DNA of 64,000 nt from an uncultured Candidatus Saccharibacteria bacterium (GTDB lineage: Bacteria; Patescibacteriota; Minisyncoccia; UBA6257; 2-01-FULL-56-20): the NCBI GenBank assembly GCA_964456235.1, contig CAYWDX010000001.1:35074-99073 (forward strand), read 5' to 3'. Positions 5,677-63,223 of the stretch are shown piece by piece. Numbering within the stretch: position 1 is the first letter of the stretch; each line of letters opens with the position of its first letter. The position numbers and the translations under genes are program-made. Below the pieces are notes generated by a model that worked only from the letters and a program-made list of their open reading frames with translations, made no database searches and was not told the DNA's origin.

Positions 5677-6780
5677 CTATTCGCTTTCGCCTGCCAATTC
5701 TTCCAAAATCTTCTTCGCCCGTGCGCCCAATTTTTTTGGCGTTTTGACGATAAAATCAACGTAGAGCTCGCCACGGCCGTTCGTTCCAAAATTCGGCATC
5801 CCCTCGTTCGGAATGCGGAGGTTTCCTTTCAAATTGAATCCGGCCGGAATTTCGACAGAAATTTTTCCGCCCGAGATGGTCGGCACTTCTAATTTTCTGC
5901 CGAGCAAGAGGTCGATGAGTTTCACTTCGCGCGTCACAATAAGATTGCTGCCTTCGCGCAGGAATGTTTGATGCGGTTTGATCGAAACCCGCAGATAAAG
6001 ATCGCCCGCCGCCGTGCCGCGCTCGCCCGCCTCGCCCATGCCCTTGATTTTGATGAGCTGGCCGTCGGCAATGCCGGGCAGAATGTCGACTTTCACATCC
6101 CGGTTTGCATCCACGCGTCCCACGCCCCTGCACGTTCCACAAGCTTTCTTCGGAATCTCGCCGGCGCCATGGCATTTTTCGCACGCCTTCACCTGGGCAA
6201 AATTCCCGAAAAAGGTGCGCTTCTGTTCGCGGACTTCGCCCCGGCCGTCGCACGTCCCACATTTTTCAAAACCACTTCCCGCCTCCGCGCCCTTCCCGCC
6301 GCATTTTTCACAGGCGACGAGCGTGCGCAAGCGGAATGTTTTCGTGACGCCGCGGAATGCTTCTTCTAACGTAATTTCTTCGCGCAATTCTAAATCGGCG
6401 CCGCGTTCATACGTTTTGCGCCGCGGGCGCATGCCGATGCCTTCGAAAAATGATTCGAAAACGTCGCCGAGGTCACCCATGTCGCCGAAACCCTGCGACG
6501 GATCGAAACCAAAACCCTCAAAGCCGGCACCATTGCCGAACCCGCCGAATCCTCCAAAGCCATTGGAACCGGACTCGGCGTTTCCGAAACGGTCATAGTG
6601 GGTGCGCCGCGCCTTATCCGAAAGGACTTGGTACGCCTCGTTAATTTCCTTGAACTTCGCCTCATTCCCGCCCGGTTTATCCGGGTGGTATTGGTGCGCG
6701 AGCTTTCGATAGGCCTTCTTTATTTCGTCGTCCGTGGCCGATTTGGTTACGCCGAGTATGTGGTAATAATCTTTTGCCAT
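5677..6780 (-). CDS. dnaJ: Chaperone DnaJ
   Basis: J-domain with HPD ([12 protein letters not shown]), a G/F region and four CxxCxGxG zinc-finger repeats. The start is taken at [11 protein letters not shown]. Confidence 0.9.
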
Positions 6781-6857
6781 CGTGGTATATAGTACACCGC
6801 TAAGATTAAAAAACAATTAATGCCGACTTGACATCATGAAGAACGGCCGCGGGCGGC

Positions 6858-7883
6858 CTAATACTGCACCGTCTCTTTCGTCTGCGGCACGCCTTCAATG
6901 CGCATAAAGCCGGTCGCGAGCAATCCTTCGTAGACGAGGAGCAACAGTAACTGCACGAAGAACACGAACAAGTATCCAACGAAACGGAACACGAGGAAGA
7001 GCACGACGACCCAAATGACCACAAACTGGTTTGGAAATTTGTCTTGCCATCCCGCAAGCGTCGCCACGATATAGTCGTAAGCGATGTCGCTCATCGGCGT
7101 CGTCGGCGAGGGCGCAACGCCGGTTGATTCCTTCACGCTGGCCGAAAATTGCGCGACCGCCTGGTTGAGCGCCTGATCCTGTGCCGAGGCCGGCAACGCT
7201 GCGAACGATGGGTTGTTTTCAAATTCCGCTCTCGCAAATCCCTTCGCGAAATCCCCAAACGTGCCGTTCAGCGTGAGGTTGGGATAGGCGTTGTCGAAAA
7301 CATTCGCAGACCAAGCGAACAACGTTCGGAAGCTGGAGCGCGGGATGAAGATTCCTTTTCCCTGGGCCTGGGGCGCATAGACGATCAAGAAAAATAAAAT
7401 GGCGCCGCTGGCGATTTTTCCAATGGCCCCGCGCGTTGCTTTGAAGAAATGGATTTCCACTTCGTTCTGCACTTCAAACCGCCCCTCGAGATATCCCCAT
7501 AACAGCAACGCAACAAGGATTCCGCCCACGACGAGCACCACCGGGATCGCATCATAAAATGCGAACGCGATCACCATCGCAACGCTCTCGCCGACGATGA
7601 TCCCGGTGCGTCGCCAGACACTTTTTTCGAGGAACATCTGGAGGCCCGAGGTAAGCGAGAAAATAACGAGGCCGATGAGGATGTACCACGGCGACGCACC
7701 GACCGTCAGGTAGCGGAAGTAGGAGTAGCCAAAGAAAAGGGCTGCGGCGACGCCGAGGCAATCCAAGACGAGGGCGCGCCAGAAGCCCGGCGGCTCGCTC
7801 GAAAGTTCTGCTTTCGTGAGATTAACTAGATTTTGGCCCTGGGGCTGCTGGTTCGTCAGGGCTGCCGGGTTCAGTTCCGCCAT
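6858..7883 (-). CDS. Multi-pass membrane protein of unknown function, inserted between dnaK and dnaJ
   Basis: At least six hydrophobic helices with no recognised family. Start uncertain: the ORF extends to 7946 and overlaps the dnaK 3' end. Confidence 0.55.
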
Positions 7884-9702
7884 TCCCTTTATTATAGAAC
7901 GCCTGGCCGATTTTTTGAATCTCCGCGGAGAGGGCGCTCGTTGCATCCTGGATCGCGGCGAGATCCTCCCCGTCTTTCGCCTTTTTGAGAGCTTCCAATT
8001 TTTCCGTCACGGTCGTTTTTACATCAGCCGGAACCTTGTCTCCCCCATCCTTCAACGCCTTTTCGCTCGTGTAGATGAGCGACTCCGCCTGGTTACGCGC
8101 TTCAATCACCTCCTTGTGCTTCGCGTCTTCGGCCGCGTGCTCGGCTGCATCTTTTTTCATTTTTTCAATGTCTGCTTTCGAAAGATTGGTGGAGGCCTCG
8201 ATCTTCACCGATTGCGTTTTGCCCGTACCTTTATCTTTTGCGGATACATTCAGGATGCCGTTCGCATCAATATCAAAACTCACTTCCACCTGCGGCATGC
8301 CGCGCGGGGCCGGCGGAATTCCATCGAGAATGAAATTTGCGAGCGTCTTATTATCTTTTGCCATCGGCCGTTCGCCTTGGAGCACATGGACCTCGACCGA
8401 GGTCTGGTTGTCGGCTGCCGTGCTGAAAACCTGCGTCTTCGCCGTCGGCACGGTCGTGTTCTTTTGGATCATGGGCGTCGCGACGCCGCCGAGCGTCTCA
8501 ATGCTCAAGGTGAGCGGCGTCACATCGAGGAGCAGAATATCTTTCACGTCTCCCTGTAAAATTCCTGCCTGCACTGCGGCGCCAACCGCGACCACCTCAT
8601 CCGGGTTGATGCCCTGATGCGGATCTTTCCCGAAAAGTTTTTTCACCGCTTCCTGCATCGCCGGCATGCGCGTTTGGCCGCCGACCAAAATGACTTCGTT
8701 GATTTCGGAGAGCTGGAACCCAGCGCCTTTCGGTGCGGTCGCAGTCACTGTTTCTTTCGTGAGCGCGATCGAGCGCTCGATGTATTCCCCGACGAGCGAC
8801 TCGAGTTTTGCGCGCGTGATTTTCATGACGAAATGTTTTGGCCCGTCGGTGCCAGAGGTGATATAGGGCAAATTCACTTCGGTTTCCATCGCCGTTGAAA
8901 GTTCGTGCTTGGCTTTTTCTGCGGCTTCCTTCAAGCGCTGGAGCGCAAGCGGATCTTTCGAAACATCAACACCCTCTTGCTTTTTGTATTCCTCAACAAG
9001 ATACTGCTGGATCTTTTTGTCGAAGTCGTCGCCGCCGAGGTGCGTGTCGCCGCCCGTCGCCTTCGCTTCAACCGTGTCATCGCCCACCTCGAGTACCGAG
9101 ATGTCGAAGGTTCCGCCACCGAAGTCGTAGACGACAATTTTTTCACTTTTTTGCTTATTGAGGCCGTAGGCAAGCGCGGCCGCCGTCGGTTCGTTGATAA
9201 TGCGCCGCACCTTGAGACCCGCGATCTCGCCCGCATTTTTCGTCGCCTGGCGCTGCGAGTCGTCGAAATATGCCGGCACCGTGATCACCGCCTCTTCCAC
9301 TTTTTCGCCGAGCTTCGCCTCGGCGTCCGCCTTCAACTTGCCAAGAATAAATGCAGAAATCTCTTCGGGCGAATACCACCGGTCGCCCATTTTGACTTCG
9401 ACGCCGCCCGCCGCGTTCGCTTGAATATCATAAGGAAGCCACGCCTTGTCACGCGCCACCTCCTCGTCGGTAAACTTGCGGCCGATAAGGCGCTTCACTG
9501 AAAAGATGGTGTTTTTTGGATTCGTGACCGACTGGCGCTTCGCGAGCAATCCCACCAAGCGCTCGCCATTCTTTGAGATCGCCGCAATCGAAGGCGTCGT
9601 GCGATTGCCCTCCGTGTTTTCCAAGATGCGCGGTTCGCCGCCTTCGGTGACCGCAACCGCCGAGTTTGTCGTACCCAAGTCAATCCCTAAAATTTTTGCC
9701 AT
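7822..9702 (-). CDS. dnaK: Chaperone DnaK (Hsp70)
   Basis: [26 protein letters not shown] and the remaining Hsp70 signatures are present. Confidence 0.95.
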
Positions 9703-9723
9703 GTTTTAATAAATTTTTAATGT

Positions 9724-10200
9724 TTATTTTTGCTTACTCACGATAACCCGCGCCGCCCGCAATACTTTTTCGTGGAGTTTGTATCCTGGCTCCACCACTT
9801 CCACGATTGATCCAGGCGGGGCCGATGCTGATTCCACTTCGGTGAGCGCTTCGGCGGTATTCGGGTCAAACGGATCGCCTGGCTTCATGTCTATTTTTTG
9901 CAGCCCTCGCTTTTTCAAAATATCTTCGATCTGCGTGCGGATGAGATACACCCCCTTCTCCACCGGCCCCGCTTTTTCGAGCGATCGAAGGCCGAGGTCA
10001 AAATTGTCGAGTACGGTGATTAAATCTTTAATGAGATCTTCGCTCCCGAACCGCGCGACTTCTTGCAAGTGTTCATATTCCTCTTTCCGATAGTTGATAA
10101 AGTCGGCTTTCGCGCGCTGCCAGCCAGCCAAGTATTCGTCGCGCTGCTTCTCGGCGGCGGCGAGTTGCGACTCTTCTTCTTTTTTTATCTCATCGGGCAT
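9724..10200 (-). CDS. grpE: Nucleotide exchange factor GrpE
   Basis: GrpE coiled-coil and C-terminal beta domain (KADFINYRKEE...DPNTAEAL). Sits in the hrcA-grpE-dnaK order. Confidence 0.85.
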   Translation of the reverse strand: MPDEIKKEEESQLAAAEKQRDEYLAGWQRAKADFINYRKEEYEHLQEVARFGSEDLIKDLITVLDNFDLGLRSLEKAGPVEKGVYLIRTQIEDILKKRGLQKIDMKPGDPFDPNTAEALTEVESASAPPGSIVEVVEPGYKLHEKVLRAARVIVSKQK

Positions 10201-54916: not shown

Positions 54917-55474
54917 TTAATTGCGGATCTCGAGGAGGCCGCCGCGCGCGCCCGGAACCGCGCCGCGCAAGAGAATCAGATTTTTTTCTTTATCAATGCC
55001 CGCGACGACGAGGTTTTTCACCGTCACGCGATCCGTGCCCATGTGTCCCGCCATCCGGCGTCCGGGTACCACGCGCTGGAATGCGGTGGAACCAATCGAG
55101 CCGGGCGCGCGGAAGCGATTTTTTTGGCCGTGCGTTTTTGGCCCGCCGCCAAAACCGTGGCGCTTCACGACGCCTTGGAAACCGCGGCCCTTCGTGATGC
55201 CGCTCACCCGGACTCTTTCGCCTTCTTTAAAAGATTCCACGGTCACTTCGTCGCCGGCTTTGAATTGTGCGACGTCGATCGGATGCCACTCGCGATTGCG
55301 AAATTCCCGCTTCGCTTTGCCGAGCATCACCTGCACGGCTTCGTATCCTTCCTTTTCCTTGCTGCGCAAAAGTCCCACCTTATTCGGCTGGGCTTCAACG
55401 ACCGTGACGGGCACCACTTTGCCCTCGTTCCACATCTGGGTCATTTTCACTTTTTTACCCAAGATAAACGCCAT
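54917..55474 (-). CDS. rplC: 50S ribosomal protein L3
   Basis: Start taken at MAFILGKKVKMTQ (consensus L3 N-terminus KKxGMTQ). The longer ORF to 55522 would translate through the leader hairpin. Confidence 0.9.
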   Translation of the reverse strand: MAFILGKKVKMTQMWNEGKVVPVTVVEAQPNKVGLLRSKEKEGYEAVQVMLGKAKREFRNREWHPIDVAQFKAGDEVTVESFKEGERVRVSGITKGRGFQGVVKRHGFGGGPKTHGQKNRFRAPGSIGSTAFQRVVPGRRMAGHMGTDRVTVKNLVVAGIDKEKNLILLRGAVPGARGGLLEIRN

Positions 55475-55506
55475 GGTAAAAATAAAAATTCCGGCATTCA
55501 CCGGAA
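55475..55506 (-). promoter_or_regulatory. Terminator/attenuator-like hairpin plus U-tract in the rplC leader
   Basis: Minus strand reads ttccgg-tgaatg-ccggaa followed by TTTTTATTTTTA, ending 1-3 nt before the rplC ATG. Confidence 0.45.
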
Positions 55507-55623
55507 GTTCACGCACCGCCACCGATACCCCATCATTACATGGGATTTTTACTTAAGATAAACGCTCCTCGTCCTCCTAAGCGGGTAGTGATTTGCATGA
55601 AACTTCCGAGAAACCTTGTGCAG

Positions 55624-55653
55624 AGTCTATCAAATTTTGCGGTTAACTGTCAA
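55624..55653 (-). promoter_or_regulatory. Sigma70-like promoter for the rplC operon (TTGACA-N18-TAGACT)
   Basis: -35 at 55653-55648 and -10 at 55629-55624 on the minus strand. Confidence 0.5.
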
Positions 55654-55665
55654 TTATGGTATATT
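55637..55665 (+). promoter_or_regulatory. Divergent promoter TTGCGG-N17-TATATT
   Basis: Positioned back to back with the rplC promoter. Would drive a transcript of about 85 nt ending at the 55718 hairpin. Confidence 0.4.
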
Positions 55666-55717
55666 GAGGGGAGCACTCAGGTAGTCTTGTGGAGCACGCG
55701 AAGGTCCCCCCCACCCG

Positions 55718-55752
55718 AAGCCGCGGCGCAAGTCGCGGCTTTTCCTTTTATT
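55718..55752 (+). terminator. Hairpin terminator, copy A of a twin GCAA-tetraloop element
   Basis: aagccgcggc-gcaa-gtcgcggctt (10-bp stem with one G.U pair) followed by TTCCTTTTATT. Confidence 0.6.
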
Positions 55753-55772
55753 AAAAATTTATTAAGAAAATG

Positions 55773-55801
55773 TTGACTTTGTGATGAGTGCGTGCTAATG
55801 T
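55773..55801 (+). promoter_or_regulatory. Promoter TTGACT-N17-TAATGT for the small membrane protein gene
   Basis: Hexamers at 55773-55778 and 55796-55801. The GGGGGTGGAG RBS follows at 55821-55830. Confidence 0.5.
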
Positions 55802-55831
55802 ATGGGCAGTAAGTACCTTAGGGGGTGGAGC

Positions 55832-56116
55832 ATGAAAGCGCGCCGTCGACGCTTCTTCGCTTGGGCCATGGTGGCAGTAGCTGCAATCTTCGCGAGCTTC
55901 GTGATACCGTTCGTCCTCCTGAAGTTCCGCGTCCCGGCGGACAACGGGGTGATCTGGACAACGGTCAACGGATTGAGCGCCGTGAGTATCCTTGCGGGCG
56001 TGTGCATCCTTTATCGGATCGCCGTCGAAAGGGAGACCCTGAATCTCATGGAGTCCCAGCTGGCCGATCGGTACAATCGGCGGCGCGAGGTCCACAACGC
56101 CTGGCTCTTTGGTTAG
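55832..56116 (+). CDS. Small membrane protein (94 aa, two TM helices, Arg-rich N-terminus) inserted between rpsJ and rplC
   Basis: ATG at 55832 sits 5 nt after a strong SD. The first in-frame ATG at 55802 abuts the -10 box and so is probably not translated. Own promoter and terminator. No recognised family. Confidence 0.55.
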   Translation: MKARRRRFFAWAMVAVAAIFASFVIPFVLLKFRVPADNGVIWTTVNGLSAVSILAGVCILYRIAVERETLNLMESQLADRYNRRREVHNAWLFG

Positions 56117-56132
56117 TAAACCCAACAACCAA

Positions 56133-56166
56133 AAGCCGCAGCGCAAGCTGCGGCTTTTTCTTTTTC
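56133..56166. terminator. Bidirectional hairpin terminator, copy B of the twin element
   Basis: aagccgcagc-gcaa-gctgcggctt followed by TTTCTTTTT on the plus strand and TTTTGGTTGTTGGGTTT on the minus strand. Confidence 0.65.
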
Positions 56167-56178
56167 TGCCAAGGGTCA

Positions 56179-56316
56179 TAGAAAAGTCTTTCGAGGGGGC
56201 TCTCGGAGGCGCTCGCAGCTTGGTCTTTCGCGAAGCGGAAGTGCGAGCGCTGAGAGAGCAGGGTGGCTCGTGCCGCTGGAGCACGAGAACACCCGTACCC
56301 GAGAAAGACTTTTCTA
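56179..56316. repeat. MITE-like structured inverted-repeat element (12-bp terminal inverted repeats, 14 bp with the flanking TA; two internal hairpins), abutting the rpsJ stop codon
   Basis: tagaaaagtctttc at 56179-56192 is the exact reverse complement of gaaagacttttcta at 56303-56316. Inner hairpins: gctctc-ggag-gcgctcgca/tgcgagcgc-tga-gagagc (56199-56259) and gggtg-g-ctcgtgc/gcacgag-aa-caccc (56261-56295). Confidence 0.5.
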
Positions 56317-56643
56317 GACCATCTTCACCTCCACGTCGACACCGGCGGGAAGATTCAAGTTTGAAAGTGATTCGATGATCTTCTGGCTCGGATTCATGAT
56401 CTCCACGAGGCGTTTGTGCACGCGGAGTTCGAACTGCTCGCGCGAATCCTTATGGACGAATGTCGAGCGGTTCACGGTGTAGTGCTTGATTTCGGTCGGC
56501 AACGGAATCGGGCCCACCACTTTAGCATCGTTGCGCTCGGCGGCTTCAATGATTTGGCGCGCCGAGGTATCGATCAATTTGTGATCGTAGGATTTGATTC
56601 GCAAACGGACTTTCTGGAGAACTTCCGATTCCTTTTTTGCCAT
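56314..56643 (-). CDS. rpsJ: 30S ribosomal protein S10
   Basis: Sequence identifies S10. It lies immediately downstream of tuf. Confidence 0.95.
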
Positions 56644-56644
56644 A

Positions 56645-57844
56645 TTACTTGACGATCTTCGTTACAACGCCGGCGCCTACGGTTTTGCCACCCTCGCGGA
56701 TAGCGAAGCGCTGCTTCTCTTCGAGCGCCACGGGACTGATGAGCTTCACGGTAAGCTTCACCGTGTCGCCCGGCATGACCATTTCCATGCCATCCGGCAA
56801 GGTCACTTCGCCCGTCACATCCGTCGTACGGATGTAGAACTGCGGCTTGTAACCCTTGAAGAACGGCGAGTGACGGCCACCTTCCTCTTTCGAGAGCACG
56901 TAGACTTCGGTTTCGAATTCCGAGTGCGGCGTTACCGTTCCCGGTTTCGCGATCACCTGACCGCGCTCAACGTCTTCCTTCTTCAAGCCGCGGAGCAAGG
57001 CGCCAACGTTGTCGCCGGCCATACCTTCATCCAACAGCTTGTTGAACATTTCAATACCGGTGATGACGGTCTTCACCGTCGGGCGGAGACCAACGATCTC
57101 AACTTCCTCGTTCACCTTCACCTTGCCACGTTCCACGCGGCCCGTAACGACGGTACCGCGGCCTTCGATCGAGAAGATATCTTCGATCGGCATAAGGAAC
57201 GGCTTGTCGAGTTCGCGCGTCGGCGTCGGGAAATATTCATCCATCGCCGCAACGAGGTCCAAGATCGGTTTTGCGTCGGCGTCGTCACCGGAAGCCGCGT
57301 TCAATGCCTTCAAGGCCGAGCCGCGGATCACCGGCGCTTTGTCGCCGTCGAACTGATATTTCTTCAAGAGCTCGCGGACTTCAGATTCCACGAGGTCGAT
57401 GAGTTCTGGATCATCCACTTGGTCGCACTTGTTCAAGAACACAATAATGTTCGGGACGCCTACCTGGTGCGCAAGCAAGATGTGCTCCCGCGTCTGCGGC
57501 ATCGGACCATCCGTGGCCGCAACGACGAGGATCGCGCCGTCCATCTGGGCGGCACCCGTGATCATGTTTTTGATGTAGTCAGCGTGGCCCGGAGCGTCGA
57601 TGTGCGCATAGTGGCGCTTCGCCGACTCGTATTCCGAGTGGTGAAGGGCGATCGTGATGCCACGCGCCTTTTCTTCCGGAGCGTTGTCGATCTGGTCAAC
57701 TGCTTCCTCTTTTTTTGCCAAACCCTTTTTGAACAACACGTGCGTGATCGCGGCGGTCAGGGTCGTCTTGCCGTGATCCACGTGGCCGATCGTACCCACG
57801 TTCAAGTGGGGCTTTGATCGATCAAATTTTTCCTTTTCTGCCAT
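56645..57844 (-). CDS. tuf: Elongation factor Tu
   Basis: [15 protein letters not shown] and NKCD motifs. Confidence 0.95.
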
Positions 57845-58021
57845 TTGTTTTTTAGAATTTTTTAATGTTTATTTAACAATCATGACAATCGATCGAACAA
57901 ACAGAAGATGAGGCAAAGCCCCATCTCGTGCGGGTTGCTAGGCCGCTCTTTTCACTTTCCTATCAACCAGGAGATTAGCCAATCGACCCGAAAGTTCCCC
58001 TCGATGCAGGAAGTACCAAGG

Positions 58022-58051
58022 CATTCTATGGCAGAACTCCGGTTTTTGTCA
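58022..58051 (-). promoter_or_regulatory. Near-consensus promoter TTGACA-N18-TAGAAT upstream of tuf
   Basis: -35 at 58051-58046 and -10 at 58027-58022 on the minus strand. Lies about 170 nt upstream of the tuf ATG. Confidence 0.5.
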
Positions 58052-58057
58052 AATATT

Positions 58058-58094
58058 TGCCGAAGAAATACGCCCGCCGCGAAACGCGGCGGGC
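58058..58094 (-). terminator. Intrinsic terminator of the inserted secreted-protein gene
   Basis: Minus strand gcccgccgcg-ttt-cgcggcgggc followed by GTATTTCTTCGG. Confidence 0.55.
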
Positions 58095-58113
58095 ATGGAT
58101 GCACTTCTCACAC

Positions 58114-58953
58114 TTACTGGCCCGAATTCCAACGCGGATTTCTTGGGTACCGGTGCTTCAGGTAGCGCTCGATTTCAAGGATGGGATGGTCCGCTTCGAA
58201 GCCGGATTGGTCTTTCGCAGCCCGGCGCCTCCGTTCCGCGTCGAGGATGAAAATGTAAATGTCATCCACGAACGGCGACGAGTTGCCGTGCAGCGCATCT
58301 TCGATGACCTCCACGGCGTGCGATCGGTCGCGGGGAATCCTCGCAAGGAGGACTCCCATCTTCCGAAACCCTCCCTGCTCGCTCGCTTTGTATTCATAGA
58401 GGCCGAGGAGGAATTTCGCCTGCTTGGACTTTGAGTGTGCCGCGACGTCGAGGAACGCCCGGTGATCTTTTTCGATCGCCTGCTTCGCCGAGAACCATCC
58501 TTCATTTTCGCCACGGAGGGTCATCCGCAGGGAATAGAAGCCGGTGGCAAGGTATTCGCAGTCGATCGTGTCCCCTGCAATCGCGCGGATCGTATCGCGA
58601 CTTGCTTCGGTGCACCCACGCGCTTCGTATTCGGCGATAGCCTCATCGAGCGCTCGGATTTCCAAAGCGTACTCCTCTTGCGGCAGCTCGCCCCGCTCCT
58701 TTCGGCGTTCGGAAAAGCGGTCGTACGCGAGACGCAGCCCGACGAGCATGTCTCCAGGGTGCGCCTGTACATATTCGAGAAATCTTTTCTGCGCCTCTCC
58801 ATGTTCGCCGTTATAGGAGAGGGTGATCGCATCTCGAAGCGTCAAGACGTCCTTGGCGTGATCATGCTTCGGCTTGGAATCGTCGACGGCAGCGGCGAAT
58901 CCAAGCGTGCTTGACGAGCAAATCAAAAACAAGAACAGCACGCGAGCTTTCAT
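58114..58953 (-). CDS. Hypothetical secreted alpha-helical protein (279 aa) inserted between fusA and tuf
   Basis: Signal peptide MKARVLFLFLICSSSTLGFAAA, AAGGAG RBS, own promoter and terminator. No recognised family. Confidence 0.6.
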   Translation of the reverse strand: MKARVLFLFLICSSSTLGFAAAVDDSKPKHDHAKDVLTLRDAITLSYNGEHGEAQKRFLEYVQAHPGDMLVGLRLAYDRFSERRKERGELPQEEYALEIRALDEAIAEYEARGCTEASRDTIRAIAGDTIDCEYLATGFYSLRMTLRGENEGWFSAKQAIEKDHRAFLDVAAHSKSKQAKFLLGLYEYKASEQGGFRKMGVLLARIPRDRSHAVEVIEDALHGNSSPFVDDIYIFILDAERRRRAAKDQSGFEADHPILEIERYLKHRYPRNPRWNSGQ

Positions 58954-58981
58954 CGCCGCTCCTTTATGTATTGAGTTATCC

Positions 58982-59001
58982 CTGTGAATTACTGTTCACA
59001 G
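58982..59001. promoter_or_regulatory. Palindromic operator CTGTGAA-N6-TTCACAG overlapping the promoter of the inserted gene
   Basis: Perfect 7-6-7 inverted repeat, CRP/FNR-like half-sites (TGTGA...TCACA), immediately downstream of the TATAAC -10 box. Confidence 0.45.
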
Positions 59002-59029
59002 TTATATCATATTTTGCAGAAAAAATCAA
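59001..59029 (-). promoter_or_regulatory. Promoter TTGATT-N17-TATAAC for the inserted secreted-protein gene
   Basis: -35 at 59029-59024 and -10 at 59006-59001 on the minus strand. Confidence 0.45.
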
Positions 59030-59066
59030 TCACGCGCTAGAGATCCCTCGCGCAGCATGCTCGAAA

Positions 59067-61172
59067 TTACCGCTTCTTCCCTTCGATAATCTGTTGGGCG
59101 ATATTCGCGGGCGCGGGTTCGTAGTGGTCGAATTCCATCGTGAACGAGCCGCGGCCCTGCGACATCGAGCGGAGTTCGGTCGCGTAACCAAACATTTCTG
59201 ACAACGGAATCTTTGCGTCGATTACTTTAAGTCCCGGCCGGTCGCCCATCGATTCAATGCGCCCGCGCTTCGAATTTACATTACCCGTCACCTCGCCCAT
59301 AAAATTATCGGGGACGATGATCTGAATTTTCATGATGGGTTCGAGGATCACCGGCTTCGCGCGCTTTGCCGCTTCCTGAAATGCCATCGAGCCGGCGATT
59401 TTGAACGCCGCTTCGGACGAGTCCACTTCGTGGAATGATCCGTCATAGAGAGTGACTTCGACATCTACCACTGGATAGCCAGCGAGGATGCCCTTATCGG
59501 TCGCCTCTTTGACGCCCTTTTCGGTCGGATTGATGAACTCTTTGGGAATCGCGCCTCCTTTAATTTCGTCGAGGAACACAAAACCCTGCCCGCGCTCAAG
59601 CGGCTTCACGCGCAAGCGGACGTGGCCGTATTGCCCGCGCCCACCGGATTGTTTGATATATTTCCCCTCCGCTTCCGCTTCGCCCATGATCGTTTCTTTG
59701 TACGCGACCTGCGGCCGCCCCACATTTGCTTCCACGCCGAATTCACGCTTCATGCGATCCACGATAATTTCCAAGTGCAGCTCGCCCATACCAGAAATAA
59801 TAGTGTCGCCGGTGTCCGCATCCCCCGCCACGCGGAAGGTCGGATCCTCTTCGGCCAGGCGATGGAGCGCCGTGCCCATTTTTTCTTGGTCAGCTTTCGT
59901 TTTCGGTTCGATGCGCAGGCCAATCACCGGTTCAGGGAAGGTAATTTTTTCAAGAATGATCGGGTGGTCAATGTCGGTGAGTGTGTCCCCGGTGGTCGTA
60001 CTCTTCAAGCCCACGATCGCAGCGATTTCACCCGCATAAATTTCATCGACTTCCTCGCGGTCGTTCGCGTGCATGCGGACGATGCGGCCAACGCGCTCCT
60101 GTACGCCTTTCGTTGCATTATAGATGTAGGAGCCGCGCTTGATCACACCCGCGTAATTGCGGAAGAATGCCAGACTCCCCACAAACGGGTCGGTCGCGAT
60201 TTTAAACGCAAGCGCGGTGAACGGTTCGCTGTCGTTTGCCTTGCGTTCAACTTCGGCGCCCGTTTTTTCGTCATGGCCTTTGACCGGAGGCAGGTCCGTC
60301 GGAGAAGGGAGAAACTCCACGACCGCGTCGAGCATGAATTGGACGCCTTTATTTTTTAGCGCCGAGCCGCACAACACCGGAATAATGTTGTTCGCGATCA
60401 CCGCCTTGCGCAGCGTCTTGCGCAAATTTTCCAAAGAAATTTCTTTACCGTCAAGATACTCTGCCATCACCGCGTCATCGTTTTCCGCAATCCTTTCAAT
60501 AAGATCATGGCGGTGCTTCGCGACCGTCTCTTTCAGGTCATCGGGGATCGGGATCTCCACCATCTTTTCGCCGTGCTCGCCCTCAAAACCATAGGCTTTG
60601 TTTTCAAGCAAATTAATGATTCCTTTAAAATTCGCCTCTGAACCGATCGGCAGCTGGATCGGAATTGCGTGTTTGGTCAAACGATCCAAGATCGACTGGA
60701 AACTTTTTTGGAACGATGCGCCCGAGCGGTCGAGCTTATTGATAAAACAGATGCGCGGCACTTTGTAGTCGTCCGCGTAGCGCCAGTTTGTTTCCGACTG
60801 CGGTTCGACGCCCGCGACACCGTCGAACACGACGACCGCGCCGTCCAAAACGCGGAGCGAACGCTTCACCTCAACCGTGAAGTCAATGTGGCCAGGCGTG
60901 TCGATCAAGTTGATGCGATGCTCGTGCGCCTTATTCCCCTTTTCATAGGTGGGGATCCAGAACGCCGTTGTCGCAGCGCTCGTGATCGTGATGCCGCGCT
61001 CGCGCTCTTGTTCCATCCAATCCATTACGGTGTCGCCCGTGTGCACCTCGCCAATCTTGTGCGAAACGCCGGTATAAAAAAGGACGCGTTCAGAGACGGT
61101 CGTCTTGCCGGCATCGATATGCGCGATGATGCCGATGTTTCTGGTTTTTTCGATGGGGTATTGTCGGGGCAT
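59067..61172 (-). CDS. fusA: Elongation factor G
   Basis: [10 protein letters not shown]-domain and domains II-V. Confidence 0.95.
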
Positions 61173-61236
61173 GCTTTTGATTCGCTGCCGTTAAAAATCC
61201 TCGCGCCGGGACGCGGGCGCAGTCATCATAATACTA

Positions 61237-61704
61237 TTATCGTGCAAAGTGGGCGAAGGCGCGGTTTGCTTCGGCCATGCGGTGCGTGTCCTGTTTCTTT
61301 TTGATGGCCGATCCTTCGTTCTTTGATGCCGCGATCAATTCGTCCGCCAATTTTTCCGCCATCGGCTTCCCTTTTTTGGAACGCGCTGCGTCGATGATCC
61401 AGCGAACCGCAAGGATGAAGCGCCGCTCGGGACGCACCTCGCGCGGAACCTGGTAGTTCGCGCCGCCGACGCGCTTAGAAGCTACCTCGAGGAGCGGCGA
61501 CACATTTTCCATCGCCTTTTCAAAAACTTTCAGCGGATCGTCTTTCGTCGTTTCTTTCACTTTTTCGAGCGCGGCGTAGACCACGCGCTCGGCGGTGGAT
61601 TTTTTACCATCCTTCATCACGTAATTGATGAACCGGCCGAGCTCAACGCGGCCGTGGACCACGTCGGGTTGATAATATTTTTTGTAGACGCGCTTCTTTC
61701 TCAT
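61237..61704 (-). CDS. rpsG: 30S ribosomal protein S7
   Basis: Sequence and position. Confidence 0.95.
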   Translation of the reverse strand: MRKKRVYKKYYQPDVVHGRVELGRFINYVMKDGKKSTAERVVYAALEKVKETTKDDPLKVFEKAMENVSPLLEVASKRVGGANYQVPREVRPERRFILAVRWIIDAARSKKGKPMAEKLADELIAASKNEGSAIKKKQDTHRMAEANRAFAHFAR

Positions 61705-61733
61705 GTTTACTCTATATATATGATCGCTTTCGG

Positions 61734-62153
61734 CTAGGCGGCAGGTTTCGGTCGCTTCGCGCCGTATTTCGAGCGCTGCTGTTTTCGATTTTCAACACCG
61801 GTTGTGTCGAGAACGCCGCGGACGATGTGATAGCGCACGCCCGGCAAGTCCTTCACGCGGCCGCCGCGCACCATGACGATAGAGTGCTCCTGGAGTGCAT
61901 GGCCTTCGCCGGGAATATACGCCGTGATTTCCATGCCGTTCGTGAGGCGCACGCGAGCCACCTTACGCAACGCCGAGTTCGGTTTTTTCGGGGTCGTCGT
62001 GAAAACTTTTACGCACACCCCGCGCTTAAAGGGCGACCCAGAATCCACCGGACGATTTTTGATCGAATTAAAATAGTATGACAACGCCGGCGACTTGCTC
62101 TTTGCCTTTTGCGGTGCTCTTCCCCTCTTAATTAGCTGACCGATAGTCGGCAT
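61734..62153 (-). CDS. rpsL: 30S ribosomal protein S12 (with an insertion of about 13 aa near the N-terminus)
   Basis: [12 protein letters not shown]...[19 protein letters not shown], with an extra [13 protein letters not shown] segment. Confidence 0.9.
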
Positions 62154-62161
62154 GTGGAAGA

Positions 62162-62190
62162 ATTGTACTAGCAGTGTTGTTTTCTGTCAA
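62162..62190 (-). promoter_or_regulatory. Promoter TTGACA-N17-TACAAT for the rpsL operon, implying a near-leaderless transcript
   Basis: The -10 ends 8 nt before the rpsL ATG at 62153. Confidence 0.4.
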
Positions 62191-62235
62191 ACAAAGTATA
62201 TTATTATGGCAGATTCCGCGGCACGATACACGAAC

Positions 62236-62308
62236 GGGCCGTTAGCTCAGTTGGCAGAGCGCATCATTTGCAATGATGAGGTCACCGGTTCGAATCCGGT
62301 ACGGTCCA
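62236..62308 (+). tRNA. tRNA-Ala (anticodon TGC), no encoded CCA
   Basis: Manual cloverleaf: G3:U70 wobble in the acceptor (GGGCCGT/ACGGTCC), D-arm TAGCTCAGTTGGCAGAGCG, anticodon loop TTTGCAA, T-arm CCGGTTCGAATCCGG. Confidence 0.85.
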
Positions 62309-62330
62309 CTCAGGAAATCTCTTTTTTGGA

Positions 62331-62879
62331 TCACGCACCTTTTCTTTTTATGGGCCGCATAACTCCCGGAAATACCTTGACGATAGCACCTAGAAGAACC
62401 ATGACAGGAGTGTAGAAAAATAGGACGAACGGTAGCGTCGTCAAGCCCATCATGGAGCCACTATATGTCCAGACGTCTATATGGTAGGTCCATGGATTCT
62501 GAATAAATACAGATCCTTGCGCTACAATGGTGAACATTATTGGCAAGGCGAAACATGCGATCCCGGCCAGGAGAGCTCCGTTCAAAATCTGCAAGGCCAT
62601 TTTTATTGGTGGTAATAGTTTACTCAGTTCAAAGAAGACGTACGCGGCGATATATAGTGCCACCATTGGATAAAAGATAAAAGCTGAATGGTCGACTTTT
62701 TCTTTCCCTCCGACGACGTCGAAGTACGTATTCATCAGGACCGCAAAAAAGATGGCGATAGTTATAACAAGCCCAAAACGCTTTTCGATATTTTCTATAA
62801 GATTCTCGAAGTTGGAATCAGCCATGTCTTCAGAATAGAAGCGTTGAAGATTTTGTCTAGGAATCACCATTCCTACCAT
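62331..62879 (-). CDS. Hypothetical membrane protein in a low-GC island
   Basis: Four or more TM helices. GC is about 43% against the window mean of about 57%. Lies directly after tRNA-Ala. Confidence 0.5.
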   Translation of the reverse strand: MVGMVIPRQNLQRFYSEDMADSNFENLIENIEKRFGLVITIAIFFAVLMNTYFDVVGGKEKVDHSAFIFYPMVALYIAAYVFFELSKLLPPIKMALQILNGALLAGIACFALPIMFTIVAQGSVFIQNPWTYHIDVWTYSGSMMGLTTLPFVLFFYTPVMVLLGAIVKVFPGVMRPIKRKGA

Positions 62880-62885
62880 AATAAA

Positions 62886-62915
62886 AAGAAGGGCCCTGCT
62901 GGTTAGCAGGGCTCT
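62886..62915 (-). terminator. Intrinsic terminator
   Basis: Minus strand gagccctgct-aacc-agcagggccc followed by TTCTTTTTATT. Confidence 0.55.
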
Positions 62916-62932
62916 TGGTTGCGGAGATTGAA

Positions 62933-63223
62933 TCAGTTGACGGTGGTCGGGACGAAGCCGGCAGTGTTGATGCTCAGGCGTTCGGACCCGATCTCGACCA
63001 TCACGGCGATGTGCCCGAGGTCGACACGGAACGACCTCTTGTCCGGACTCATCACGAGCCCAGAGACCGGCTGTCCCGCGAGGACGCTGGCCAGCGTGGC
63101 GGTGTCCGCGACCTCTTCCTTTCGATGGATCAGGTCGGGCGGGATTGCGATCAAGCGGACGCCCGCGTTGCCAGTCAAGACTTGGAGCTGATTGCCCATG
63201 AGGACGGGCAATTGCAATCTCAT
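62933..63223 (-). CDS. Hypothetical small protein (96 aa)
   Basis: GGGAGG RBS 9 nt upstream of the ATG at 63223 and an upstream TTGCCA-N17-TATATT promoter. Confidence 0.5.
   Translation of the reverse strand: MRLQLPVLMGNQLQVLTGNAGVRLIAIPPDLIHRKEEVADTATLASVLAGQPVSGLVMSPDKRSFRVDLGHIAVMVEIGSERLSINTAGFVPTTVN

Follow-up and report, generated by a model that had tools for sequence, protein, structure and literature searches.

In a 64,000-nucleotide (nt) stretch of contig CAYWDX010000001.1 from an uncultured Candidatus Saccharibacteria bacterium (hereinafter the window), the genes for EF-G (fusA) and EF-Tu (tuf) are separated by an open reading frame (ORF) for a protein of 279 amino acids (aa). The whole fusA-tuf interval spans exactly positions 57845-59066 (1,222 bp); all coordinates at this locus are window positions, on the minus strand. 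A preliminary description of the interval, made from the sequence alone, presented it as an autonomous transcription unit for a secreted protein that had been inserted into the str operon and split it. The features on which that description relied, namely the 279-aa ORF with a signal-like N-terminus, TTGATT-N17-TATAAC, AAGGAG and a GC-rich terminator, are all present on the minus strand, and the layout of the interval and its flanking genes is as follows.

59067-61172, minus strand: fusA (EF-G, 701 aa), final conserved gene of the rpsL-rpsG-fusA unit
59001-59029, minus strand: promoter-like site of the ORF, with -35 TTGATT at 59029-59024, a 17-nt spacer and -10 TATAAC at 59006-59001
58977-59006, minus strand: inverted repeat with 12-nt arms, TATAACTGTGAA-N6-TTCACAGGGATA, overlapping the -10 and the likely transcription start of the ORF
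58959-58964, minus strand: Shine-Dalgarno sequence AAGGAG, 5 nt before the ATG of the ORF
58114-58953, minus strand: ORF of 279 aa, predicted exported, all-helical protein resembling tetratricopeptide repeat (TPR) proteins, of an uncharacterized clade-restricted family
58060-58096, minus strand: predicted intrinsic terminator T1 of the ORF, with a 12-bp stem (58096-58070, 10 G-C pairs), loop TTT and tail ATTTCTTCGG
58023-58052, minus strand: predicted tuf promoter TTGACA-N18-TAGAAT, matching 11 of 12 consensus positions
57845-58016, minus strand: tuf 5' leader of about 172 nt, with no Shine-Dalgarno sequence and with the last ~50 nt A/U-rich
57975-57989, minus strand: leader motif GGGTCGATTGGCTAA, 15 nt, with a core, GGTCGATTGG, that is invariant in the close clade
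57895-57927, minus strand: terminator-like leader hairpin, 60 nt upstream of the tuf ATG, with 10 pairs and then CTGTTTGTTC, a candidate attenuator
56645-57844, minus strand: tuf (EF-Tu, 399 aa)

A clade-specific protein family and its place between fusA and tuf

No family had been recognized for the ORF product in the preliminary description, and a k-mer-prefiltered search of 5.8 billion proteins returned the query alone or, with the family profile, three proteins. This impression of an orphan gene was overturned by an exhaustive phmmer search of 1.84 billion cluster representatives, which yielded 48 proteins at E<=1e-3 including the query (that is, 47 others), 21 of them at E<=1e-10; most members are 260-290 aa long and were matched over almost their full length. 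The earlier statement holds for the curated libraries but not beyond them, because the exhaustive search and AlphaFold delineate an uncharacterized 48-cluster family with a predicted TPR-like fold.

The family alignment shows hydrophobic, signal-peptide-like N-termini in nearly all full-length members and contains the motifs PDDP, S..Q..FLLG..EY, PF.DDIWF and KYP.N. The close subfamily also has two invariant or nearly invariant cysteines, C114 and C132, a feature in keeping with export. The N-terminus of the ORF product, MKARVLFLFLICSSSTLGFAAA followed by VDD, is arranged into n-, h- and c-regions like a Sec signal peptide and, by inspection, is of the signal peptidase I type, with MKAR, VLFLFLICSSSTLGF and AAA preceding VDD. 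The putative signal peptide comprises about residues 1-22, and cleavage between AAA and VDD would leave a mature protein of roughly 255 aa. The product is not predicted to be a lipoprotein because it has no lipobox (L-[ASTVI]-[GAS]-C): its sole N-terminal Cys is part of F-L-I-C, with Ile at -1, and the relatives have A-V-C or V-M-C.

When run with the family alignment, AlphaFold2 produced a model of the all-helical TPR-like type (predicted local distance difference test, pLDDT, 90.4; predicted template modeling score, pTM, 0.86) with 13 main helices that span residues 32-276, replacing a single-sequence model that was unusable (pLDDT 46). The stacked antiparallel helix pairs forming a solenoid that characterize the TPR fold (Pfam clan CL0020) are present in this predicted model, and a PDB profile search gave weak TPR matches at residues 36-97. 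The amino acid sequence itself did not place the protein in CL0020: TPR_14 matched with E=0.085 (14 bits compared to the cut-off of 23.5) and TPR_Slam with E=0.13, and across the family any single TPR model was matched by at most 4 of 43 members, with a best E of 3e-4. We conclude that the ORF is a real gene and that its product is a predicted exported, TPR-like protein of an uncharacterized family that lies outside every curated family.

By analogy, the extracytoplasmic TPR scaffolds LpoP, NlpI, BamD, PilF and CpoB/YbgF might be counterparts of this protein with regard to its role. However, it shows no significant sequence relationship to these proteins (best TM-score 0.42) and has no lipobox; furthermore, PF.DDIWF and KYP.N are not TPR signatures, and the outer-membrane machineries that these scaffolds serve are lacking in Patescibacteria. 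The RRNPP TPR receptors (Rap, PlcR) are cytoplasmic regulators with an added helix-turn-helix or phosphatase domain, whereas the ORF protein carries a putative signal peptide and no extra domain.

The location of the gene is well conserved: of the 14 family members whose flanks could be read, 12 are situated in the fusA-tuf interval. In all seven loci with both flanks visible (the window, L091, L093, L095/96, L098/99, L102 and L082), the gene is found between fusA and tuf, and five more (L084, L092, L094, L100 and L101) have one flank visible, either fusA or tuf. Four metagenome loci were obtained with the subfamily alignment as the query, and the locus of the window is contained in the run SRR12313479. 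Identity to the window is 77-92% for fusA, 88-96% for tuf, 67-72% for rplD and 54-58% for an M50 peptidase, compared to only 26-40% for the ORF protein. Other genes come and go in the interval, including those for a YgjP-like protein and a 1,147-aa Big/fn3/peptidoglycan-binding surface protein as well as small ORFs on either strand, and the family gene usually stays directly before the tuf promoter.

The composition of the ORF is native, within the distribution for the window: its GC content is 0.579, GC content at third codon positions (GC3) 0.692 and codon log-likelihood -1.058, compared to window means of 0.552, 0.649 and -1.079 (standard deviation 0.113), respectively. Searches of phage, plasmid and IMG/VR collections yielded no homolog, and the ORF is not bordered by repeats or insertion scars, so that none of the marks of a mobile or horizontally transferred cassette (atypical composition, mobile homologs, flanking repeats) is present. 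The preliminary description had proposed synteny and codon usage or GC3 as checks on the insertion that it envisaged. Both speak against it: the fusA-tuf position has been kept across a clade in which the proteins have diverged to 26-40% identity, and the ORF is indistinguishable from the rest of the window. Because the same position is occupied across this diverged clade and codon usage and GC3 are native, we conclude from the sequence comparisons that the gene is not a recent insertion but an old, clade-conserved, fast-evolving and vertically inherited resident of the interval.

Comparison with more distant relatives was based on 80 loci. The best EF-G matches among one genome per GTDB species are all metagenome-assembled genomes (MAGs) of Patescibacteria/Parcubacteria, with at most 75% identity. 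No family member was found in these 80 loci, in which fusA is <=75% identical, either by tblastn or with the family hidden Markov model searched against all ORFs. Among the closest outgroups, L060 has a gap of about 200 nt with no gene in it, and the gap in L002 holds different genes. In L060, the closest GTDB representative (fusA 75% identical), fusA, tuf and rpsJ are split into several frames at 6001-9800; these frame breaks are probably long-read indel errors in the MAG rather than real pseudogenes.

The near-constant adjacency of fusA and tuf assumed in the preliminary description does not hold in this phylum. Adjacency was observed in only 4 of the 37 Patescibacteria-labeled loci with enough downstream sequence (gaps <=107 nt). 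In 22 of the 26 such loci in which tuf was located, the gaps measure 405-5,056 nt and contain varied ORFs, and in 11 further ones there is no tuf within at least 3.5 kb. By contrast, all 17 loci without the Patescibacteria label have gaps of 16-183 nt. A literature search found no description of a fusA-tuf split in the candidate phyla radiation or Patescibacteria. In 11 loci of other Patescibacteria (L007, L009, L014, L015, L018, L036, L041, L043, L046, L058 and L059), a small protein of 86-140 aa is encoded directly 5' of tuf; these proteins are interrelated and show a weak likeness to the Phd/YefM antitoxin (PF02604, E=9e-6, below the cut-off), with no obvious toxin partner beside them.

Transcription units and the tuf leader

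The genes that flank the interval on either side, all of them on the minus strand, complete the picture of the str/S10 region.

61734-62153, minus strand: rpsL
61237-61704, minus strand: rpsG
56314-56643, minus strand: rpsJ, 1 nt after tuf, making a tuf-rpsJ unit
from about 55474 downward, minus strand: rplC

The window shares the order rpsL, rpsG, fusA ... tuf, with S10 genes after tuf, with the canonical str operon rpsL-rpsG-fusA-tufA of Enterobacteria (PMC6735719), in which fusA and tuf are contiguous and co-transcribed. In the window, however, tuf is not the last str cistron; a gene, a predicted terminator and a separate promoter intervene, tuf is joined to rpsJ, and there is a further split between rpsJ and rplC. 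In some lineages, translation operons have been recorded as separated by multigene insertions (PMC6735719).

The claim of a separate, near-consensus tuf promoter was borne out. The -10 of TTGACA-N18-TAGAAT ends 179 nt before the tuf ATG, and TTGACA with an 18-nt spacer precedes tuf in all 10 loci compared, with a -10 of the form TAnAAT in nine of them and TACAGT in L082; the tuf leaders measure 120-203 nt across these loci. The predicted promoter is thus of the sigma-70 type, with hexamers 16-18 nt apart and a conserved position. In about half of the other Patescibacteria loci, TTGAC-N16-19-TAnnnT occurs within 260 nt of tuf, a raw count without a null expectation. The three best promoter matches in 7.5 kb are located directly 5' of rpsL, tuf and rplC, on the correct strand. 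The scan gave 9 promoter-like sites compared to 3.9 +/- 2.3 in shuffled sequences, and 14 terminator-like sites compared to 11.7 +/- 3.2, so that terminators as a class are not enriched. Stronger evidence than the scan that these predicted sites are real comes from the homologous loci, where a terminator and a tuf promoter are found at the same places; the relatives keep a hairpin with a T-run followed by the tuf promoter although neutral sequence should be saturated at this divergence.

Upstream of the ORF, a TG at 59009-59008 turns the promoter-like site into an extended -10 (the spacer ends in TGa). Comparable TTGnnn-N17-(T/C)ATAnn sites are found 5' of the homologs in L084, L091, L092, L093, L095 and L098, several of them with a TGn extended -10, and a strong GGAGG-type ribosome-binding site is present in all homologs. 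T1 begins 18 nt past the ORF stop codon and is predicted to be an intrinsic terminator, with a GC-rich hairpin and an immediate U-rich tract; a GC-rich hairpin with a T-run lies 3' of the family gene in every relative compared. The inverted repeat at 58977-59006, which could be an operator or a 5'-terminal mRNA hairpin, is not conserved in the relatives and is specific to the window genome. A CRP-like reading of this TGTGAA-N6-TTCACA repeat was rejected given that the spacing is wrong for CRP and the repeat is not conserved. Collectively, the signals suggest that the region consists of three units plus the ORF's own promoter, namely rpsL-rpsG-fusA(-ORF), tuf-rpsJ and rplC onward.

The tuf leader is itself conserved. 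The invariant core of the leader motif lies within GGGTCGATTGGYTAA and is shared by eight leaders (the window, L084, L091, L093, L094, L098, L100 and L102), in which the motif lies 26-36 nt after the -10 and its distance to the ATG varies. A hairpin with a U-run is found 53-88 nt before tuf in 6 of the 10 loci under a strict rule, and in 2 more by eye. Neither the window nor any relative has a Shine-Dalgarno sequence before tuf, where the last 50-60 nt before the ATG are A/U-rich; the neighboring ORF has the strong AAGGAG. Within the window, the motif occurs once, matches with 3 mismatches being at the chance level, and a search with a sequence-only nhmmer profile added no leaders from beyond the close clade. 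A cmscan search of 55000-63000 at E<=1 gave no match to an Rfam leader or riboswitch at 57845-58060.

This layout suggests attenuation or factor binding. In E. coli, the S10 leader is controlled by L4. That leader and the S10 r-leader of Firmicutes (PMC7247131) have the same layout as the one described here, with a long leader before the rpsJ unit and an element followed by a hairpin with a U-run. They differ from it in that the window leader precedes tuf, rplD (L4) is in a separate downstream unit, there is no Rfam match at E<=1, and the window leader has neither a covariation-supported structure nor a known binding protein.

Two other candidate features of the leader were rejected. A likeness to helix 45 and the anti-Shine-Dalgarno tail of 16S rRNA, at its 3' end, was unsupported overall (combined p=0.11), with p=0.008 for the window, p=0.03 for L094 and no significance in the other six loci. 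A small ORF in the leader has its ATG inside the -10 and is not conserved. There is also a perfect 10-nt complementarity between the 5' arm of the leader hairpin, UGGGGCUUUG (57914-57923), and tuf codons 10-13, CAAAGCCCCA (57807-57816); by our estimate, about one such 10-nt complementary pair is expected by chance in 1.5 kb.

Interpretation and alternatives

The interpretation that we consider probable is that of a Parcubacteria-like genome of the Patescibacteria (candidate phyla radiation) with a native gene for an exported protein of a clade-confined family, an old resident of the interval, next to a separately transcribed tuf-rpsJ unit with leader control. Under this scenario, the gene would have been acquired or have arisen at the base of the clade, in an interval that collects accessory genes phylum-wide, and would have been inherited vertically since. 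Its own promoter, of moderate strength, would drive its transcription, perhaps supplemented by read-through from rpsL-rpsG-fusA; T1 would end that transcription and insulate tuf-rpsJ, which would be transcribed separately from the strong TTGACA-N18-TAGAAT promoter. The conserved 15-nt motif and the terminator-like hairpin probably make the tuf leader a control point, by attenuation or factor binding, for the synthesis of EF-Tu and S10. The protein itself is most likely exported by Sec and would serve outside the cytoplasm, at the cell envelope, as a scaffold of the TPR type that binds a peptide or protein partner; a role at the exposed surface would be in keeping with how rapidly it has diverged.

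A number of observations pull in the opposite direction. The signal peptide was judged by eye, no TPR model reaches the Pfam cut-off for the ORF protein, and its function is proposed from the fold class alone. All promoters and terminators discussed here are predictions; the ORF -10, TATAAC, has no conserved final T and fails the consensus-scan rule, so that it was not listed by the scan. Two family members are located outside the interval: P0017 has a DoxX gene as its neighbor, and P0020 lies beside rpsU and an aminoacyl-tRNA synthetase gene. One further member, L090, is counted in neither group. Moreover, synteny in a single order-level clade can mirror inheritance alone and requires no functional link to tuf. 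In the leader, no RNA structure is statistically established: RNAalifold on a MAFFT alignment of 8 distinct leaders predicts no pairs, because the position of the candidate stems shifts from one leader to the next; in a shuffle test of the closing stem, the stems on either side of the motif did not exceed those in shuffled flanks in length (p=0.08); and the minimum free energy (MFE) z-scores of the leaders are modest, from -0.3 to -2.8, all of them negative. Finally, no terminator-like site was found between the fusA stop codon and the ORF in the window, which leaves the autonomy of the ORF unproven: it may also be read through from the str promoter, in which case the cut in the operon may fall after the ORF rather than before it.

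The autonomy asserted in the preliminary description is therefore upheld with respect to the ORF's own promoter-like site, strong ribosome-binding site and terminator but is qualified by this possible read-through. If read-through were the only source of the transcript, the ORF would be the last cistron of an rpsL-rpsG-fusA-ORF str transcript, with TTGATT/TATAAC non-functional and T1 serving as the str terminator. The uninterrupted space after fusA in the window, the short fusA-homolog spacers in L092, L095 and L098 (62-78 nt) and the non-canonical -10 are all consistent with this arrangement, which we nevertheless regard as unlikely. L091 and L101 have a hairpin and T-run after fusA, and in L093, L102, L082 and L094 fusA and the homolog are separated by other genes, of which some are on the opposite strand; in these loci, the homolog needs its own promoter, and the recurrence of the TTGnnn-N17-(T/C)ATAnn sites 5' of the homologs points the same way. 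The proposal that a foreign cassette recently split an intact rpsL-rpsG-fusA-tuf operon in this lineage, by horizontal transfer or through a mobile element, can draw on the absence of the gene from the closest GTDB representatives outside the clade (L060 with no gene in the gap, L002 with other genes) and on the fact that the unit carries its own signals. We find it highly improbable and consider it largely refuted, given that at least 11 other genomes or contigs carry homologs with 26-40% identity at this position, that the ORF has native codon usage and GC3, that neither insertion scars nor homologs from phages, plasmids or viruses were found, and that a fusA-tuf split is the norm in the phylum.

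With regard to the protein, the weak TPR signals in its sequence and the invariant or nearly invariant residues R74, D131, Y188, S191, D230-D231 and N272, which could form an active site, might indicate that the helical solenoid is the framework of an enzyme, acting for instance on glycans or the cell wall, rather than a passive TPR scaffold. This appears quite unlikely: no enzyme family was detected, and the structural neighbors listed are overwhelmingly TPR or helical-repeat binding proteins, none of them aligned through a catalytic domain. A more serious contender, if still a doubtful one, concerns the leader element GGGTCGATTGGYTAA, which might act not as structured RNA but as a DNA operator for a transcription factor, at +20 to +30 from the start site, that blocks or pauses RNA polymerase. 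The fixed distance between the motif and the -10 (26-36 nt), compared to its variable distance from the ATG, and the non-significant RNA-structure tests are compatible with an operator. Conversely, the motif lacks palindromic symmetry, the analysis identified no candidate regulator, the MFE z-scores are all negative, and the hairpin and U-run that come after the motif in most loci are typical of attenuation at the RNA level.

It is tempting to combine these observations into a broader proposal, which we put forward as speculative and on balance improbable: a new autoregulatory EF-Tu/S10 attenuator in a Parcubacteria clade, consisting of an invariant GGGUCGAUUGGYUAA 20-30 nt into the transcript, a hairpin with a U-run and an A/U-rich end, together with a phylum-wide landing site for accessory genes between fusA and tuf, occupied by the secreted TPR-like family here and by a Phd/YefM-like small protein elsewhere, beside an independent tuf promoter. 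The findings are real but ordinary in kind and do not overturn current views. They change the annotation of the hypothetical ORF to that of a predicted exported TPR-like protein of a clade-specific family and redraw the str/S10 region as at least three putative transcription units. The adjacency of fusA and tuf, a standard assumption in other bacteria, fails in Patescibacteria, where tuf typically seems to have its own control region; the open fusA-tuf junction across the phylum and the conserved tuf leader motif are side results of modest interest. If functional, the motif would provide a handle on how reduced genomes regulate their most abundant protein, and exported proteins that evolve fast are prime candidates for a part in the interactions of these episymbionts at the cell surface.

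Neighboring genes

Upstream of the interval, the promoter-like sequence TTGACA-N17-TACAAT of rpsL (62153-62190 region, minus strand) leaves only 8 nt between its end and the rpsL ATG, without a Shine-Dalgarno sequence, so the rpsL-rpsG-fusA mRNA is probably leaderless or nearly so. Downstream, rpsJ and rplC are separated by a gap of about 790 nt (55474-56313), which contains a convergent ORF on the plus strand (55802-56116) encoding a hydrophobic protein of 104 aa, with plus-strand hairpins followed by T-runs on either side of it, at 55717-55742 and 56131-56158. A weak Rfam match to BjrC68 at 56101-56165 reflects the terminator hairpin. The gene rplC has its own promoter-like site, TTGACA-N18-TAGACT at 55653-55624, and a hairpin with TTTTTATTTT (55506-55489), attenuator-like in appearance, lies just 5' of the likely true rplC start at 55474.

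An ORF for a membrane-like protein of 182 aa is located beside tRNA-Ala (62236-62309), at 62331-62879 on the minus strand. With a GC content of 0.434 and a GC3 of 0.484, it is a compositional outlier that has the worst codon fit among the plausible genes and no Pfam match, and it is a better candidate for a recent acquisition than the 279-aa ORF.

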